From NCBI GenBank assembly GCA_009392915.1, contig CP045477.1, forward strand, positions 1-64,000: a stretch of DNA of 64,000 nt. Reading direction: 5' to 3'. This stretch comes from Candidatus Forterrea multitransposorum CG_2015-17_Forterrea_25_41 (GTDB lineage: Archaea > Iainarchaeota > Iainarchaeia > Iainarchaeales > CSSED10-239). A model generated the notes under the pieces. That model had not been told where the DNA came from. It made no database searches and saw only the letters and a program-made list of their open reading frames with translations. The position numbers and the translations under genes were made by a program. Below are positions 2,211-30,104 of the stretch, piece after piece. How positions within the stretch are numbered: the stretch's first letter is position 1; each line of letters opens with the position of its first letter.

Positions 2211-5093
2211 TTAATCTAACCTCTCTGTTATTTCTTGCATGACCTCTTCTACAAAGAATTGCAATCCATTATATTTTAATATTTTAATAACTTCTTTATT
2301 TGTTTCTTTTTTAATAAGTTCTGCAAATTGCCCTGTTGCATTTCCTTCAATAACTATTATTTTTTTTGCAGATTTAAGTAAGTCTTTTGTTCCAGGATAA
2401 ATTGGATATAATTGTTCATAATGAAGATATTTTATTTTTTTATTATCTATTTTTTCAACAGCTTCTTTAATTGTTTCAAAAGTACTTCCCCATCCAATAA
2501 TAATTATTTCATTACCTTTTCCAATAATTGTTGGCTTTAAACTTTCAAAAGTTATATCTTCTATTCTTTTTAATCTTTTTTTAACCATTTTAATTCTTAA
2601 AGAAAAATCTTCTGTAATATGTCCTGTTTGGTCATGTTCGTCACTATCCACACAAACTAAACCTTTTCCAAAGCCAGGGATTGCTCTAGGGGAAATTCCA
2701 CTTTCTGTAAAAGCATATCTTTGATAATCTTTTTTACTTTCTATAATATATTTTTCTTTATCTTCTTTTATTTCTATTTTTTCAAAAGGATAAAGATTTT
2801 CCATAAAATATTGATCTGTTAATATAAAAACAGGAATTTGGTATTTTTGAGAATCAATAAAAGCTTTGTTTGTAATCTCTACAGCACTTTTTAAATTTTT
2901 AGGAGCATATACAATTCTTGCAAATTCTCCATGTCCAGCGTGCATAACTAAATTTAAATCTTCTTGAGCTGTTCTTGTTGGAAGTCCAGTTGCAGGTCCT
3001 GGTCTTTGAGCTACATGTATGACTAATGGAGTTTCTATCATTCCTGCAAGGCTTACACCTTCACACATAAGTGCAAATCCTCCACCAGATGTGTTTGTAA
3101 GTGATCTTGCACCTGCAAAAGATGCTCCTAAACACATGTTTATTGCTGAAATTTCATCTTCTGCTTGTTCTACAATAATATCAAAATTTTCTCTTAATTT
3201 TGCTAGATTTTGTAAAACACCTGTTGATGGTGACATTGGGTATGCTGATATAAAATCACACCCTCCAGCAATTGCTCCGTATGCTATTGCTTGAGCACCT
3301 GTAAATAAATTATTTAATTTTATTTGTTTATTTTTTTTAATTTTTGGTAAATTTTTAACTATTTTTAAAATTTCTTTTCCTTTTAAAATACCTTTTTCTG
3401 CTGCTTGAATATTTTTTAAAACAATTTCTTTTCCTTTTTTTGAAAAACTTTCTTTTAGTTGTTTTATAAAATATTTTTTATTAATATTTAGTATTCCTAA
3501 AAGAGTTCCTGTTGCAACAGTGTTTGCAAAAACTTTATTTCCTATTTTTTCTGCAATTTCTTTAAAGGAAACATCAATTGTTTTATTTTTAAGCCCTAAT
3601 TTTCTAACTTCTTCTTTATTTCCAATAATAATTGTATTTTCATCAATTCTTTCTTTTAAATGTTCTATAGTATTTTTATCTAAAGCAAGTAAAATATCTA
3701 TTTTTTTTAAATTTCCTCTTCTTTCTTTTTCTGTAAGTCTAATAGATATGGTGTTAACTCCTCCTCTAACTCTTGACATATATTCAGAGTTTGAAGAAAA
3801 GTAAAAACCTTCTTCTTTAAGTATTTTAAGTAAAACATTTTGAACAGATACAAGACCTTGGCCTGCTTCTCCAGAAAGTACAATTGATAATTCTTTTTCA
3901 TCTATTTTTTTATTTTTAATTTCTTTTTTAAAAAGTTCTTTTGTTTTTTCAGTAATTATCTTTGAAAATTCATTTAATTTTTTAAAGTTTTCTTTTTTAG
4001 GAATTCCTGTTGAAATTTCTCCTAAAATAACTTCTGCTTCAAAATTATTTGTAATATTTTCAAATTCTTTAAAGGCTTCCCCACCCCATTCTTTAGATCC
4101 AATAAATCCAATAATTTTTGTTTTTGGTTTTAATTTATTTAAAGTACTAACTGTTGTTGAAACAATAGGGTGAAGCCCACCTAAAAAAGTAGGAGATGCT
4201 ATAATTAAAGTTGACGCATCTACCATTTCAATTGCAAGTTGTCCTATCTCTGTAGTTGTAAGATTATATTCTTTAACTTTATTGCCTTGGTTAATAAGTT
4301 TAGAAGTTAAATATTCAACCATTTTTTTTGTACTTCCGTGCATAGAAGTATACCCAATAATTATTTTTGGTTTGGTTTCTTTTTTTGACCAATTATAGTA
4401 TTTATCAATTATCCAATCAACATCTTGGTATATTTTTCCATGACTTGGAGCTATTATTTTTGGATTATATTCTTTTATTTTTTCTAAGTTTTTAAGAATA
4501 TAATTTCTAAAAGGCATCATTATTTCTGCATAATATCTTTTAGCAGGTAATTCTATTTCTTTTGTATCTTTAACAAATAATTCGCTTGTTGCAAGATGTG
4601 CTCCAAAAAAATCACAAGAAAACAAAATTTTATCTTCTTTTAAAAAAGTAGACATAGTTTCTGGCCAATGAACCCAAGGAGTATAAATAAATTTTAAGGT
4701 TTTATCTCCTAAGCTAATTTCTTCTAAGTCTTTAATAACTTGTATTCTTTTTTCCTCAATTACCATTTCATCTAAAAGTATTTTTTTACAAAGAGGATTA
4801 CAAATTAATTTTGCTTTTGGAAATTTATTTAAAATTATAGGTATTGATCCAGAGTGATCTTGTTCTGCATGATTAGATATAATATAATCTATATTTTTAA
4901 TATTTAATTTTTCTAAGTTTAAAATAAGTTCTTCTGTTTTTGTAATGTCAACAGTGTCTATTAAAGCTGTTTTTTTAGATCCAATTATTAAGTATGAATT
5001 GTAGCTAGTTCCATCTGGAAGATAGATTAGTTCATCAAAAAGCTTTCTATCCCAATCAATGGCTCCAACTGAATATATGTTTTTCTTAATCAT
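2211..5093 (-). CDS. Fusion protein: flavodiiron protein (MBL-like diiron domain plus flavodoxin domain) joined to OFOR gamma and alpha subunits
   Basis: N-terminal ~400 aa carry the FDP diiron ligand motif NHAEQDHSGS and downstream His/Asp ligands, then a flavodoxin-type SMHGSTKKM; a lysine-rich linker; a KorC-like segment (LSGEAGQGLV); a KorA-like segment (TGAQAIAYGAIAGGCDFISAYPMSPST). Single uninterrupted 960-aa ORF. Confidence 0.7.
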   Translation of the reverse strand: MIKKNIYSVGAIDWDRKLFDELIYLPDGTSYNSYLIIGSKKTALIDTVDITKTEELILNLEKLNIKNIDYIISNHAEQDHSGSIPIILNKFPKAKLICNPLCKKILLDEMVIEEKRIQVIKDLEEISLGDKTLKFIYTPWVHWPETMSTFLKEDKILFSCDFFGAHLATSELFVKDTKEIELPAKRYYAEIMMPFRNYILKNLEKIKEYNPKIIAPSHGKIYQDVDWIIDKYYNWSKKETKPKIIIGYTSMHGSTKKMVEYLTSKLINQGNKVKEYNLTTTEIGQLAIEMVDASTLIIASPTFLGGLHPIVSTTVSTLNKLKPKTKIIGFIGSKEWGGEAFKEFENITNNFEAEVILGEISTGIPKKENFKKLNEFSKIITEKTKELFKKEIKNKKIDEKELSIVLSGEAGQGLVSVQNVLLKILKEEGFYFSSNSEYMSRVRGGVNTISIRLTEKERRGNLKKIDILLALDKNTIEHLKERIDENTIIIGNKEEVRKLGLKNKTIDVSFKEIAEKIGNKVFANTVATGTLLGILNINKKYFIKQLKESFSKKGKEIVLKNIQAAEKGILKGKEILKIVKNLPKIKKNKQIKLNNLFTGAQAIAYGAIAGGCDFISAYPMSPSTGVLQNLAKLRENFDIIVEQAEDEISAINMCLGASFAGARSLTNTSGGGFALMCEGVSLAGMIETPLVIHVAQRPGPATGLPTRTAQEDLNLVMHAGHGEFARIVYAPKNLKSAVEITNKAFIDSQKYQIPVFILTDQYFMENLYPFEKIEIKEDKEKYIIESKKDYQRYAFTESGISPRAIPGFGKGLVCVDSDEHDQTGHITEDFSLRIKMVKKRLKRIEDITFESLKPTIIGKGNEIIIIGWGSTFETIKEAVEKIDNKKIKYLHYEQLYPIYPGTKDLLKSAKKIIVIEGNATGQFAELIKKETNKEVIKILKYNGLQFFVEEVMQEITERLD

Positions 5094-24818: not shown

Positions 24819-26192
24819 ATGGCTATAGACAAAAGATTTTTTTTAGGGATAACTATTAGTAAAAAAAGAAAAGCAATTTCTCCTTTAATTGCCACTATTC
24901 TTTTAATAGTTGTTGCCGTTGCAATTATAGCTATTATTGTTTCCTGGGGAAAAGGATTTACCAATGATTCTTTAAGCAAAGCCTCTGGTCTTGAAATTTA
25001 CACTGAATCAGAAACTTCTTTTTACTTGCAAGTAAAAAATTCAATAAACGGAAGAACTGTTGTTCAATATAATCCTCCTTATAATTCTCCTCACACCTCT
25101 TTAACCATAACAGGTTATAGCCTACATGGTAACACGAATATTAATCCCATAGATCCACCAATTACAATAACTGCAAACCAAACTGCAGTTATTGATCATG
25201 GTATTTTATTTCCAGAATTAAATTTAGTTTTATATTTGGATAATGATCGAATGATTATTAAAACTGATCTTTTACAAACTATTAAATCTCCTCTTTCTTG
25301 TCCAGAAGGTTATGTTTCTGTTCCAGGAAACCACTTATATGGAACTATGAATGAAAGTGGGGGTTTTTGTGTTTCAAAATATGAGATGAAAATGGATAGA
25401 ACAGGAGATGGAATAGGAAATCTTGTAGCTGATTATCCTGATTGTAACACCGGTTCTTTAACATATAATACTTATAGTTATGAATTATGCCCTACACCAG
25501 GCACTTTAGTTTCTACTCCAGAAGGTTCTCCCATAGCAAGAATCACACAAACTGAAAGCATATCAGCCTGTGAAGCTATTGGTGGTCATTTAATAACAAA
25601 TAACGAATGGATGACCATTGTACGAAACATAGAACAAGTTCCATCTAATTGGTCAGGTGGAGCAGTTGGTGATGGCTACCTTCCAAGAGGGAATTCATCT
25701 TCTTCAGGAGCTATGGAAGGCTTTGATCAACTTTCAGGAACTACCAAAAGAACCTTGACCTTAACAAACGGAGAGGTAATTTGGGATTTAGCAGGAAATG
25801 TAAGACAATGGACCAGTGACACTATTCAAAGAAAGGACCAGCCTGATGGTTTTAATAATGTAGATGATAGTAATAATACTTCTGGTTTTAATTGGTTTGA
25901 TTATTTTAAGGGCGGTGGAGTAGATCAATATATTTATTCTGATAATTTAGGTAACACCACCTTAAAGTATAAAGATTTATTTTTATTAACTAGTAATACT
26001 TATAATGCAACAGATAATGGTGTTGGAAGGATTTATACTTATAGTGATTTTAGTGATACTAGTACAACTGAGTACGCGTTTTTGCGCGGTGGTCACTGGG
26101 GCAATGGCACTAATGCCGGGGTCTTGCACCTGGTCTTGAACAAGACTCCTGGGTCCCGGAGCATCCTCATCGGCCTGCGCTGTGTCAAGTAG
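24819..26192 (+). CDS. DGR target: pilin-like (class III signal peptide) surface protein with C-terminal FGE/C-type-lectin-fold variable region
   Basis: N-terminus KAISPLIATILLIVVAVAIIAII (archaeal pilin-like); C-terminus YAFLRGGHWGNG...LIGLRCVK resembles the FGE-sulfatase/CLec fold used by DGR variable proteins; its last ~120 nt form a GC-rich VR matching the TR. Confidence 0.75.
   Translation: MAIDKRFFLGITISKKRKAISPLIATILLIVVAVAIIAIIVSWGKGFTNDSLSKASGLEIYTESETSFYLQVKNSINGRTVVQYNPPYNSPHTSLTITGYSLHGNTNINPIDPPITITANQTAVIDHGILFPELNLVLYLDNDRMIIKTDLLQTIKSPLSCPEGYVSVPGNHLYGTMNESGGFCVSKYEMKMDRTGDGIGNLVADYPDCNTGSLTYNTYSYELCPTPGTLVSTPEGSPIARITQTESISACEAIGGHLITNNEWMTIVRNIEQVPSNWSGGAVGDGYLPRGNSSSSGAMEGFDQLSGTTKRTLTLTNGEVIWDLAGNVRQWTSDTIQRKDQPDGFNNVDDSNNTSGFNWFDYFKGGGVDQYIYSDNLGNTTLKYKDLFLLTSNTYNATDNGVGRIYTYSDFSDTSTTEYAFLRGGHWGNGTNAGVLHLVLNKTPGSRSILIGLRCVK
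26072..26192 (+). repeat. DGR variable repeat (VR), 3' end of the target gene
   Basis: ~55% GC in a ~25% GC genome; near-identical to 27297-27417 with 13 mismatches, 12 of them at template adenines; identical 3' 24 nt CATCGGCCTGCGCTGTGTCAAGTAG (IMH-like). Confidence 0.8.
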
Positions 26193-26498
26193 TTTTTAGA
26201 AAAAATATATTTCATCCCCAAACCATGTATTTAGACGGGTGAGACGGCAAGACGGCCAGACGGAAGAAGCCATGGCAACCTAAACGTTTCAAGATTGTTT
26301 TTGCAAAAAAATGAAAAAACGTATTTGTGAAGTTTTAAAAAAAAGAAATGAGTGTGATTTTTGCAAATTTTTTTGATTTTTTTCAAAAAAATTTGCTAGC
26401 CGTTAAACCAAATGGTTTTTTAATGTAAAAATAATTTTTATAATAATTAAGTTTTAAAGAAAAAATACTTTATATCTTGGACAAACAATGTGATTTAA

Positions 26499-26896: not shown

Positions 26897-27226
26897 ATGT
26901 TATTTGACTTAAAGTTATATAAAGAAACTTATAACTTTTTACTTTATATTTATCCTGAAATAAATAAATTCCCTAAATCAGATAAATATTCTTTAGGAGA
27001 GGATATTAAAAAAACAACTATTTCTTTAATGTCAAATATTGTTCTTTTTTCAAAGCATAATGAAAATACTTTAAAAGAAGCAGATAAAAACTTAGAATTA
27101 CTAAGAATATATATTAGGCTTTCTTTTGATTTAAAAATAATCTCTTTTAAAAAATATGAGGTTATTTCAAGGCAATTAAATGATATTGGTAATTTATTAG
27201 GTGGTCTTTTAAAACAAAAGATTTAA
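26897..27226 (+). CDS. avd: Accessory variability determinant (Avd)-like four-helix-bundle protein
   Basis: 109 aa, predicted all-helical, basic; sits immediately upstream of TR and RT (canonical avd-TR-RT order). Confidence 0.55.
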   Translation: MLFDLKLYKETYNFLLYIYPEINKFPKSDKYSLGEDIKKTTISLMSNIVLFSKHNENTLKEADKNLELLRIYIRLSFDLKIISFKKYEVISRQLNDIGNLLGGLLKQKI

Positions 27227-27296: not shown

Positions 27297-27417
27297 GTGC
27301 GCGTTTTTGCGCGGTGGTAACTGGAACAATGGCACTAATGCCGGGGTCTTGAACCTGAACTTGAACAATACTCCTGGGAACCGGAACAACAACATCGGCC
27401 TGCGCTGTGTCAAGTAG
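27297..27417 (+). repeat. DGR template repeat (TR)
   Basis: GC-rich noncoding copy of the VR containing AAC/AAT codons (would encode N-rich ...NWNNGTNAGVLNLNLNNTPGNRNNNIGLRCVK); located between avd and the RT. Confidence 0.8.
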
Positions 27418-27678
27418 TTTCTCCTTATTATTTTTAATAATAAGGTTTTATCAGAGTTTGTATGTTTATTTTTTTATCTAAAAAAACATATAAAGCGAAT
27501 ATTTTAAAAAACTACATCTGTAAAATGTTTCCTGATTGCACATAATGTGTGCCATAAGAACTATTTTGTTTTTATGTTAAAAAATCAAATATAAAGATAA
27601 GTTATTACATTTAGTATTTTTATAGTCTGTAAAAAGAAATCTGTAATAACTCTTAACTTTAAATAAGGCTTTTTAAAA

Positions 27679-28695
27679 ATGAAATCATACAATAACCTTT
27701 GGCAAGAATTCACTTCTTTTAAAAATATTTTTAATGCCTATAAAAAAGCAAGAAAGTCCACACCAAACAAAAAGTATATCTTGCAATTTACCACAAATTT
27801 AGAAAAGGAGTTATTCTTATTACAAGATCAATTAATTTCAGAAAATTTTCAATTTTCTCCTTACAGAAGTTTTAAAGTTTATGAACCTAAAGAAAGAACA
27901 ATAAGTGCACCTATTTTCAGGGATGTTGTTGTTCAGCATGCCATAATAAACATTATTGAACCTATTTTTGATAAAACCTTTATAGATAACTCTTTTGCTT
28001 GTAGAAAAGGAAAAGGCACACATAAAGGGCTTTTTGAAATTAAAAAAGTAATTCAAACCCCAAATCATCCAAAATACTATTTAAAACAAGATGTAAAGAA
28101 ATACTTTCCTTCAGTTCATAAACCTACCTTAAAAGAAATAATTTTTAAAAGAATTAAGGATGCAAGATTACTTTCTCTAATATATAAAATAATTGATAGT
28201 TATTCTTTTGATTTAAATCAAATTCAAAAAGGTATCCCTATAGGTAATTTAACCTCTCAGTTGTTTGCAAATATTTATTTAAACCATTTAGATCAGTATG
28301 TTAAGCATTCTTTAAAAATTAAACATTATTATAGATATGTAGATGATTTTTTAATATTTTCAAACAATAAAAGAAAATTACATGTTTTTAGAAGAAAAAT
28401 AAAATTATTTTTAAGTAAAGAACTATTATTAGATGTTCCAAAAAATAAAACTTATATAAACTTAGTAAGTAAAGGAGTTGATTTTTTAGGTTATAAGGTA
28501 TTTCCTTCAAACATAAGATTAAGAAAATCAAATCTTAAAAGATTTCTTCTAAGACAAAATAAAAATAACTTTCTTCTAAAAAAAAATCAAATTTCTAAAC
28601 TTAACTATAATTTTTCTCTTTTTTCTTTTTTAGGTTATGCAAAGCATGCAAACTCTTATAATCTCTTAAGTACTTTAAATATTAATGAGTTATAG
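27679..28695 (+). CDS. DGR-type reverse transcriptase
   Basis: RT motifs: ISAPIFRDVVVQHAI, IGNLTSQLFANIYL (the DGR-specific SQ variant of QGxxxSP), YYRYVDDF (YxDD catalytic motif); 338 aa. Confidence 0.85.
   Translation: MKSYNNLWQEFTSFKNIFNAYKKARKSTPNKKYILQFTTNLEKELFLLQDQLISENFQFSPYRSFKVYEPKERTISAPIFRDVVVQHAIINIIEPIFDKTFIDNSFACRKGKGTHKGLFEIKKVIQTPNHPKYYLKQDVKKYFPSVHKPTLKEIIFKRIKDARLLSLIYKIIDSYSFDLNQIQKGIPIGNLTSQLFANIYLNHLDQYVKHSLKIKHYYRYVDDFLIFSNNKRKLHVFRRKIKLFLSKELLLDVPKNKTYINLVSKGVDFLGYKVFPSNIRLRKSNLKRFLLRQNKNNFLLKKNQISKLNYNFSLFSFLGYAKHANSYNLLSTLNINEL
28589..28687 (+). repeat. 99-bp direct repeat, copy 1 (3' end of the RT gene)
   Basis: Identical to 30138-30236. Confidence 0.85.
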
Positions 28696-28838: not shown

Positions 28839-30104
28839 ATGGATAAAGCTTTTTTAAGAAACGTTGTTTCTGACCAGTATGAAGATTTAAAAGATGTTTC
28901 AAAAACAATACAAAGATATGATTCAAAAGAAATAGCGCGCTTTGTAAATAATCCTGCTATATCTATAATTTCAGGAGTAAGGCGTTGTGGTAAGTCCACT
29001 TTTTTAGAGCAGATAATAAATTTATATTATAAAAATAACTTTTATTATTTTGATTTTTCTGATGAAAGAATTGCAAAATTTGAAACTGCTGACTTTCAAA
29101 CATTATATGAGGTGTTTTTAGAAAAATTTGGAAAAAGACAGGCTTTTTTCTTTGATGAAATACAAGGAGTTCCAGAATGGAATAAATTTGTTAATAGAAT
29201 GAAAAAGATTGGGCATAAATGTTTTGTAACCGGTTCAAATTCAAATTTGTTAAGTCAAGAAATATCTACTTATCTAACAGGAAGACATATTGATAAAATC
29301 TTATTCCCTTTTTCCTTTAAAGAATATTTAACGTATAAAAATATTAATGTAGATTTAGATTCTACAAAATCAAGAACCTTAATTATTAAAGAGTTTAAAA
29401 ATTACTTTAAAATAGGTGGTTTTCCAGAGGTTGTTTTAACAAACGATACTTCAATTTTATTAAATATTTATTCTGACATAATTTCTAAAGATATAATTGA
29501 AAGATTTAGGATTAATGATGTTTCTTTATTTAAAGAATTTTGTAATTATGTAATTTCTTTATCTACGAATGAATTTACTTTTAAATCATTAAAAGATAAT
29601 TTTAATATTCAGAATATTACTACTGTTTCAAACTATCTTGATTATCTTAAATTAACTTACCTTGTTTATGAAGTTAAAAGATTTTCTTCTTCATTACAAA
29701 AATTAAATAAATATCCAAAAAAATATTATTGTATAGATAATGGTTTATTAAATAAAGTGGGTTTTGGATATTCAATAGAGGAAACTAGATTTTTAGAAAA
29801 TCAAGTTTTTATTGAACTTTGGAGAAATAATCCGCAATCTGAAATTTATTATTATAGAGATAAGGATAATAAAGAATGTGATTTTTTATTGTTAAATGAT
29901 AGAAAAGTAGTTAAGGCTATTCAAGTGTGTTTTGCTTTTAAAAAGATAGATACTAGAAAAAGAGAAATAGAAGGTTTACTATCTGCTTTAAAAGAGTTTA
30001 ATCTAAATTATGGCGAAATTATTACTTTTGAGCATAAAGAAAAATTAAAGATAGATGGAAAAGTAATAGAGATGATTCCTGTATATGAGTGGTTATTAAA
30101 ATAA
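28839..30104 (+). CDS. AAA+ ATPase of the COG1373 / DUF4143 family
   Basis: Walker A SGVRRCGKST, Walker B FFFDEIQ, C-terminal DUF4143-like region; 421 aa. Confidence 0.65.
   Translation: MDKAFLRNVVSDQYEDLKDVSKTIQRYDSKEIARFVNNPAISIISGVRRCGKSTFLEQIINLYYKNNFYYFDFSDERIAKFETADFQTLYEVFLEKFGKRQAFFFDEIQGVPEWNKFVNRMKKIGHKCFVTGSNSNLLSQEISTYLTGRHIDKILFPFSFKEYLTYKNINVDLDSTKSRTLIIKEFKNYFKIGGFPEVVLTNDTSILLNIYSDIISKDIIERFRINDVSLFKEFCNYVISLSTNEFTFKSLKDNFNIQNITTVSNYLDYLKLTYLVYEVKRFSSSLQKLNKYPKKYYCIDNGLLNKVGFGYSIEETRFLENQVFIELWRNNPQSEIYYYRDKDNKECDFLLLNDRKVVKAIQVCFAFKKIDTRKREIEGLLSALKEFNLNYGEIITFEHKEKLKIDGKVIEMIPVYEWLLK

Follow-up and report, generated by a model that had tools for sequence, protein, structure and literature searches.

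The 3' flank of the DGR target gene in the window, which is the whole 64-kb stretch of DNA analysed here, carries a periodic direct-repeat array made of four exact copies of AGACGG. The core sequences and their spacing are conserved among related DGRs, the array is confined to the VR side of the retroelement, it forms no secondary structure and has no complementary segment in the DGR RNA, and it occupies the same slot as the 21-bp part of the BPP-1 IMH. On balance, and by a modest degree, we favour the interpretation that the array acts in cis at the DGR target site, as a VR-side-specific tag, read by its sequence, that marks the recipient copy. Its position and its conservation suggest a role in retrohoming, action as DNA and the kind of partner that might bind it, and each of these is put forward as a reading of the sequence.

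The window contains a complete DGR on its plus strand (Table 1), with a TR/VR pair whose differences are sited at adenines, and with RT and Avd genes adjoining the TR. The VR and the TR form a 124-nt repeat of 89% identity in which 12 of the 14 mismatches fall at TR adenines; the two others are G26144 in the VR against T27369 in the TR, and the 5' boundary, where the VR has A and the TR has G. Homology ends at 26195, and the last 28 nt of the VR (26168-26195), the segment that fits an IMH in the window, are identical to the TR, so that IMH and IMH* are the same. The homologs of the RT come from loci with matching gene order, the closest named ones being from DPANN archaea. An archaeal-type helicase, tRNAs and a 5S rRNA are also present in the window and, with the RT homologs, point to a cellular, probably DPANN-like, archaeon as the source. 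An IS-type DDE transposase ORF (PF01609 and PF13737; 23699-24661) separates the helicase gene from the DGR target gene, at a position where two loci syntenic with the window, L081 and L293, have only small UPF0175-type genes. Next after the RT gene, in the window (28839-30104) as in L303/L304 (RT 64% identical), comes an AAA_14/DUF4143 ATPase gene, possibly an accessory gene or one of a mobile cassette; L081, L291 and L293 lack it at that place. The hairpin on the 3' side of the TR is AT-rich with a 10-bp stem, and its counterpart at the same place in L081 is CCTTATT-GAA-AATAAGG.

Table 1. Coordinates of the DGR features in the window, counted from its first nucleotide.
Feature	Position	Strand	Remarks
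DGR target gene	24819-26192	+	457 aa, FGE-sulfatase / C-type-lectin-like domain; Pfam PF03781, E 7e-7
Variable region (VR), 3' end of target gene	26072-26195	+	
Target-gene stop codon	26190-26192	+	
AT-rich spacer box, from end of VR/TR homology to array (AAAAAATATATTTC ... ATGTATTT)	26196-26232	+	two TRTATTT blocks kept across the DPANN clade
AGACGG x4 direct-repeat array	26233-26263	+	copies 26233-26238, 26242-26247, 26250-26255, 26258-26263; linkers GTG, CA, CC
AT-rich perfect inverted repeat, 14-bp stem (GCAAATTTTTTTGA / TCAAAAAAATTTGC)	26363-26396	+	fold -12.5 kcal/mol, z -4.4
ORF128, 128 aa	26499-26885	+	divergent, predicted Avd-like; second beside bAvd
Canonical bAvd accessory protein	26897-27226	+	PF22296, E 2e-21
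Template repeat (TR)	27297-27420	+	no AGACGG array 3' of the TR
Hairpin directly 3' of TR, CCTTATTATT-TTT-AATAATAAGG	27423-27445	+	donor/RNA side; DNA fold -6.6 kcal/mol, z -6.2
DGR reverse transcriptase (RT)	27679-28695	+	PF00078, E 1.5e-21

A first-pass annotation of this DNA had noted GACGG pentamers at 26234, 26243, 26251 and 26259, in a locally GC-rich element just 3' of the target-gene stop codon. The positions agree with the sequence, and so does the setting, the GC content being 0.54 at 26225-26274 against 0.1-0.3 in the flanks. The real repeat unit is the hexamer AGACGG (26223-26276 reads CCATGTATTTAGACGGGTGAGACGGCAAGACGGCCAGACGGAAGAAGCCATGG), and Tandem Repeats Finder returns a period-8 array at 26242-26267. 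The first copy starts 41 nt past the stop codon and 38 nt past the end of the homology at 26195. On both strands of the window AGACGG has four matches in total, all of them in the array and spaced by 9, 8 and 8 nt; dinucleotide shuffles give 1.08 matches per window, and four copies within 31 nt are far beyond chance. Neither AGACGG nor CCGTCT occurs near the TR, so within the window the array belongs to the VR side only. It also lies outside the TR/VR repeat and has no TR counterpart, which is not the position of an IMH. For the comparisons below, we define a VR-flank periodic direct-repeat array as at least three copies of one 4-6-mer, at a period of 7-9 nt, lying on the sense strand no more than about 80 nt 3' of the VR, which describes a class of our own and not a published family; the window array belongs to it with its four copies at spacings of 9, 8 and 8 nt. 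The repeats had further been described as bracketed by CCATG (26223-26227) and CATGG (26272-26276). The former is where it was placed and the latter is one base off, at 26271-26275, but this bracket is found in the window only and is absent in relatives, and is therefore a chance feature.

It had been proposed that the element plays the part of the hairpin or cruciform found downstream of the IMH in characterised DGRs, with the caveat that it looks nothing like a simple hairpin. The caveat is borne out, and the hairpin-like role as such is not supported. Neither strand of the 111-nt region 26190-26300 folds better than dinucleotide shuffles, as DNA (z +0.98) or as RNA (z -0.20 for the plus and +0.14 for the minus strand), and the array alone has a z of +0.15, while the true hairpins of these loci reach z -4 to -9 with the same folding tool. 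The array contains no 7-10 bp GC-rich inverted-repeat stem, its sense strand shows no 4-nt loop of the GRNA type (GRA in nanoarchaea), and by starting 38 nt after 26195 it lies outside the interval of 4-34 bp downstream of the VR in which DGR hairpins are placed. A GRNA or GRA loop is present in the related loci L082, L209 and L305, in an element separate from the array. Conserved structure and pair covariation, to which the first-pass annotation had looked, are absent from the array across relatives; the element itself is present in homologous DGR loci, where primary sequence and spacing are conserved instead.

Several other candidates were rejected. G-quadruplexes were not chosen by the gquad option of ViennaRNA for either the GACGG or the ATCGG array. 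No Rfam family matches the array, whether at the gathering threshold or with the cut-off relaxed to E <= 1, and the only Rfam hits in the region are two chance microRNA matches on the AT-rich inverted repeat. A 51-aa ORF on the minus strand (26231-26386) includes part of the array, yet coding is disfavoured by the repeat period of 8-9 nt and by the indels that distinguish the relatives. A scan for bacterial promoters and terminators, with bacterial models applied to an archaeal host, gave nothing informative. Pairing of the array with the DGR RNA was not supported either, as CCGTCT is found nowhere in the window. The same holds for pairing between VR flanks and TR flanks in general: the longest complementary match averages 6.16 nt over 123 loci, compared with 6.06 for permuted pairs and 5.97 for shuffles.

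The loci of close relatives, obtained by exact look-ups of the proteins homologous to RT and ORF128, show how strictly the array is maintained. Eight lineages (the window, L082, L081, L206, L291/292, L293, L295 and L296-299, with RT 72-99% or ORF128 66-100% identical to the window) carry four copies of (A)GACGG about 30-40 nt after the VR, always at spacings of 9, 8 and 8 nt. When these loci are aligned, each of the 20 GACGG core columns is invariant; the invariant columns number 5 of 10 between the cores, 15 of 37 in the AT-rich spacer that leads up to the array and 10 of 67 downstream of it. Two sub-clades share the array even though the sequence just before it is wholly different (CCCCAAACCATG in one, CGAGAATATTG in the other), and its orientation relative to the target gene is fixed at all loci. 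Our results thus uphold the assignment of the element to the 3' flank of a DGR VR, and answer the question of its conservation: cores and spacing are invariant in eight related lineages, and linkers and flanks drift. Fixed cores in a fixed register, free linkers and the lack of pairing together fit an element that is read by a protein or through its sequence. Slippage readily yields short tandem repeats, and one could regard the array as a neutral, microsatellite-like repeat hitch-hiking beside the VR. Slippage would give identical units in variable copy number, whereas here the copy number of four and the spacing stay fixed with RT identities down to 72%, and the cores remain invariant as linkers and flanks change. 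We give such an origin hardly any weight.

Outside the eight lineages, the AT-rich AAAAATRTATTTC...TRTATTTT box that precedes the array also occurs in L301 and L303/L304, as it does in L081, and an nhmmer profile of the AT box plus array matched only members of this clade among all the loci compared. No array was found in the 145 nt of readable flank of L203 (RT 65% identical). Searches for the four-copy AGACGG pattern in viral contigs gave a single unrelated hit, and a metagenome scan for three AGACGG copies separated by 2-3 nt yielded only unrelated simple repeats among the matches listed. In L296-L299 (e.g. L296 at 3792-3880) the target gene, VR, GACGG array, ORF128 and bAvd are kept, the TR is truncated at its 3' end and the RT gene is gone. 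These may be decaying DGRs, in which case retention of the array may reflect recent decay, or DGRs that are served in trans. The contigs of L203, L207, L208, L301 and L302 begin inside the VR or inside the intergenic region between VR and ORF128; assembly breaks at the VR are consistent with VR diversity at the population level, and they reduce the number of flanks that can be read. L304 (5427 nt) and L303 (5482 nt) have the gene order ORF131-Avd-TR-RT-ATPase-target. The first and the last 30 nt of L304 are identical, and both ends of L303 lie inside differing copies of the VR, as would be seen either for a small circular DGR-bearing replicon or for an assembly wrapped around a diversified VR.

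In more divergent members of the clade the core changes by degrees. The corresponding position, again behind the AT-rich box, holds ATCTGG-ATCGG-ATCGG-ATCGG in L209 and L303/L304 (RT 62-64% identical), TATCGG-TATCGG-AACGG-AATCGG in L301 (RT 60%), and ATCTG-ATCTG-ATCTCG in L305 (RT 56%), where the hairpin GGCCTTGCC-GTAA-GGCAAGGC comes next. The GACGG arrays would thus be related to arrays of the ATCTG type, a relationship suggested by this gradation of forms rather than by an alignment.

The same loci indicate how the array stands to the DGR hairpin. A hairpin directly follows the VR in L082 and L301, and follows the array in L209, L303/L304 and L305. The one in L082 (AGCCTTTCTT-GAA-AAGAAAGGCT) is perfect and has the GRA/GRNA loop typical of DGRs. 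The RT of L082 is 99% identical to that of the window, and this locus has 38 extra bases right after the VR (L082 645-682), hairpin included, which are missing from the window at 26195/26196; hence nearly identical DGRs exist with and without the classical hairpin. Because array and hairpin co-occur in relatives, the array does not replace the hairpin, and is instead a separate, additional element. As a structural substitute for the hairpin or cruciform, or as a G-quadruplex or slipped DNA, the array would have in its favour a fitting neighbourhood, a locally high GC content and four GG runs. This reading is largely refuted, and its probability is very small, by folds that equal those of shuffles, the failure to find a G-quadruplex, a flanking palindrome that is unconserved, the true hairpins that relatives have as well, and the single G per unit of the ATCTG arrays found more generally. 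Another hairpin position is conserved in this clade. The AT-rich inverted repeat of the window (Table 1) lies about 100 nt after the array and about 100 nt upstream of ORF128, and L203, L209, L296 and L303-L305 have hairpins at the matching relative place that are GC-rich and unrelated in sequence (GCGCGCCCC-GTTA-GGGGCGCGC in L203, AGACAGCCCTT-GAA-AAGGGCTGTCT in L209 and GGGCCCG-N7-CGGGCCC in L296). For the hairpin before ORF128, position is conserved and sequence is replaced.

How general such arrays are was assessed with a set of more distant DGRs. RT profile searches of genome and viral contigs returned only distant DGRs (RT 35-51% identical), from bacteria, phages and archaea, in which TR/VR pairs were detected through their adenine-biased mismatches. 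The 80 nt after each of 124 distinct VRs were then compared with the 80 nt after the matching TR. At least three copies of the same 4-mer at spacings of 6-10 nt are found in 62 of 124 VR flanks, 8 of 124 TR flanks and 106 of 2480 shuffles, that is, in half of the VR flanks as opposed to 6% on the TR side and 4% of shuffles. For at least four copies, the counts are 31 of 124, 0 of 124 and 6 of 2480, respectively. The other half of the 124 distant VRs have no array under this strict 4-mer criterion. By far the most frequent spacings in the distant arrays are 7 nt (73 cases) and 8 nt (67 cases), and in most DGRs the array starts about 9 nt after the end of homology, as compared with 38 nt in the clade of the window. 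A GC-rich hairpin with a GATA, GGTA, GAGA or GAAA loop occurs in 63 of 123 flanks, and the order is VR, array, GRNA-loop hairpin in 28 of the 29 loci that have both. The possibility that the repeats form a three-frame stop trap, through the TGA in ATCTGA or CTTGA, was rejected, since many arrays lack TGA yet keep ATCTG. On the other side of these elements, the TR 3' flanks of many bacterial and archaeal DGRs (e.g. L011, L012, L019, L023, L032 and L035) contain GCCAGA(A/T), a hairpin and then CAGWGC, 10-60 nt past the TR; this motif presumably belongs to the spacer RNA by which RT-Avd is recruited.

The core types sort by DGR lineage into ATCTG, CTTGA, CCCTTT, ATCGG and GACGG. ATCTG is the core of phage, Firmicutes and Proteobacteria elements and of some archaea, with a clear fourfold array in the L012-type element of Desulfofundulus; CTTGA, repeated as many as 7 times, comes mostly from Patescibacteria, and CCCTTT characterizes a group in which the TR comes after the RT. 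A core bound to the lineage is expected if its partner is encoded by the element. The odds are slightly in favour of the window array being the DPANN-lineage version of the arrays between VR and hairpin (3-7 copies, period 7-9 nt) that are common in DGRs.

Three further readings have to be weighed here, the main one being that the array serves the accessory operon. The AT box would then be an archaeal TATA/BRE with transcription starting at or in the array, and the repeats would be an operator, or an RNA-level site in the leader of the ORF128-avd-TR-RT transcript (the DGR RNA), for instance for Avd-like proteins. About 25 nt separate the end of the conserved A/T box from the first repeat, which is the usual archaeal distance from TATA box to transcription start, and the array lies in the intergenic region between target gene and ORF128 in every clade member read. 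This same gene order makes 'after the VR' inseparable from 'upstream of ORF128' within the clade. The distant DGRs argue against such a function: in the multi-target elements L010 (three VRs), L038, L045, L032 and L285 there is an array after each VR, even where no accessory gene lies downstream, so that it is the VR, rather than the accessory operon, that the array accompanies. Besides, a conserved TATA-like box (TTTATATC...TTGGACAAA) about 30 nt before ORF128 makes a promoter 265 nt upstream unneeded. We regard a leader or operator function as unlikely, although it is the principal competitor of the target-site interpretation.

The two others are less likely, as is the microsatellite origin discussed above. 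A signal in the 3'-UTR of the target gene, acting in termination, processing or stability and read on the mRNA, would agree with an array on the coding strand, 41 nt past the stop codon and after a run of five T at 26193-26197, in an orientation that is fixed at all loci. It is difficult to reconcile with the lack of structure and of an Rfam match, and with the fact that the oligo-T run, which is of the archaeal terminator type, precedes the array; nor does it give a reason why the motif should change with the DGR lineage rather than with the host. We consider it improbable. Alternatively, the repeats, being on the cDNA-pairing strand, could attract or position lagging-strand priming or pause the replication fork and so keep the VR single-stranded, without any docking of DGR proteins. 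The commonest bacterial core does contain CTG, which is the trinucleotide preferred by E. coli primase. In our sample, however, the core follows the DGR lineage and not the host phylum, and the archaeal and CPR cores are different. According to the available text of a 2026 study (PLoS Genet 2026, PMC12875486), editing is favoured with the cDNA-complementary strand as the template of lagging-strand synthesis, as a replication-linked signal would have it, and altered DnaG left editing unchanged, which goes against such a signal. It seems to us a shade less probable still than a 3'-UTR signal.

Among known cis elements, the closest in position is the IMH of BPP-1 (AY029185). Its VR ends in GGGGCGCGCGGCGT-CTGTGACCACCTGATTCTTGAGTAG, followed by the hairpin CGGGGCC-GAAA-GGCCCCG, and the 21-bp part of its IMH (CTGTGACCACCTGATTCTTGA) stands between (GC)14 and the hairpin, the same slot as the arrays. 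These 21 bp contain CTG-N7-CTG-N4-TTG, i.e. three YTG units at 7-10 nt spacing, and the TR copy differs within the segment. The available text of Guo et al. (2011; PMC3240598) states that, for a sequence to serve as recipient, its (GC)14 and 21-bp elements must be functional and the hairpin must be there as well, and that of Wu et al. (2018; PMC5758913) that recognition must extend downstream where IMH equals IMH*. Since the last 28 nt of the VR are the same as in the TR, this last situation applies to the window. The array resembles the 21-bp part of the BPP-1 IMH in being 3' of the mutagenised VR and before the hairpin and, as proposed here, in being read as sequence and in discriminating recipient from donor. 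It differs in that the IMH is part of the VR/TR repeat and has an imperfect IMH* at the TR, whereas the array is outside the repeat and has no TR counterpart; moreover, the window array is non-coding, has a GACGG core in four exact copies and lies 38 nt beyond the repeat. With the DGR hairpin or cruciform (Guo et al. 2011) it shares the nature of a VR-side-only cis element, the flank and the conservation among relatives, but the hairpin has a GC stem of 7-10 bp with a GRNA loop and free stem sequence, and the array consists of direct repeats whose sequence is fixed and which do not fold. The nanoarchaeal DGRs of Paul et al. (2015) are likewise archaeal, and the available text describes an IMH and a hairpin with a GRA loop, of which the GAA-loop hairpin of L082 is an example; that text reports no direct-repeat array, and the window has no hairpin beside its VR. 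In the available text of the DGR literature searched, an incomplete library (Guo 2011, Wu 2018, Paul 2015, Roux 2021, Benler 2018, a 2024 Bacteroides preprint and the 2026 PLoS Genetics paper), we found no description of a periodic direct-repeat array, nor of a periodic nature of the IMH.

We propose that such an array solves the problem posed by a VR and a TR with identical 3' ends, where the IMH cannot tell recipient from donor. Being absent beside the TR, the array would mark the VR copy as the recipient. The lack of CCGTCT, together with the lack of excess complementarity between VR and TR flanks, makes pairing unlikely, and we infer that a protein or RNP is the reader. The array is probably a docking site, on the sense strand with which the cDNA must pair, for an oligomeric factor encoded by the DGR. 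Short fixed cores that recur at a fixed period, with free linkers between them, are the hallmark of a reader that binds each repeat with one subunit, as known for the ring-shaped oligomer TRAP, with spaced GAG/UAG triplets on the trp leader RNA, and for plasmid iterons. The array has the same several short fixed cores and short free linkers in fixed period; its own period is 8 nt with 4 copies, and the potential partner Avd is a pentamer, so that the comparison is an analogy only. Candidate readers would be the Avd pentamer, the Avd-like ORF128, or an RT-Avd-RNA particle attached to the 5' end of the cDNA. For the last of these, the available text of PMC12875486 reports that the cDNA 5' end stays joined to spacer RNA held by RT-Avd. 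Pairing of this end with the IMH, which terminates the VR, would place the particle over the sense strand just 3' of the IMH, which is where the array is found.

The second candidate is restricted to the clade in which the GACGG arrays occur. The ORF128 family comprises 14 clusters in 5.8 billion proteins (E <= 1e-5), all of them in this DGR clade, and PF05635 is hit by 4 of 14 family members. An AF2 model of ORF128 (pLDDT 84) has four helices, and its top Foldseek matches are 2rld/2gsc and the Avd structures 8ub7/4dwl; Avd itself is a pentamer of four-helix bundles. By this model the DGR would encode, immediately ahead of bAvd, a further Avd-like four-helix-bundle protein of high divergence, and we regard ORF128 as a natural candidate for the reader of the clade-specific GACGG/ATCGG cores.

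Recognition elements that flank the VR are already known, and what is new is the architecture of the array and its core. There is a moderate chance that the array exposes a general, undescribed feature of DGR target sites. A more far-reaching proposal, which we offer tentatively and think more likely wrong than right, is that in bacteria, phages and archaea alike periodic arrays are a third general DGR cis element, additional to IMH and hairpin, with 3-7 repeats at a period of 7-8 nt on the strand that pairs with the cDNA and a core co-evolving with the retroelement. Each repeat would be read by one subunit of pentameric Avd or of ORF128, steering the cDNA towards the VR rather than the TR, and the GACGG array of the window would be the most divergent and most clear-cut form.

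How the cDNA replaces the VR, and how the VR is discriminated from the TR, is still incompletely understood in 2026, according to the available text of PMC12875486. A sequence-specific, periodic and VR-only element predicts a binding partner, rules of spacing and copy number, and a lineage-specific code, and the latter could explain why DGRs act solely on their own targets. Knowledge of the arrays would lead to better annotation of VRs and of remote targets in metagenomes, and in engineering, where DGRs are used for targeted hypermutation, a cognate array might be needed to port DGRs other than that of BPP-1.
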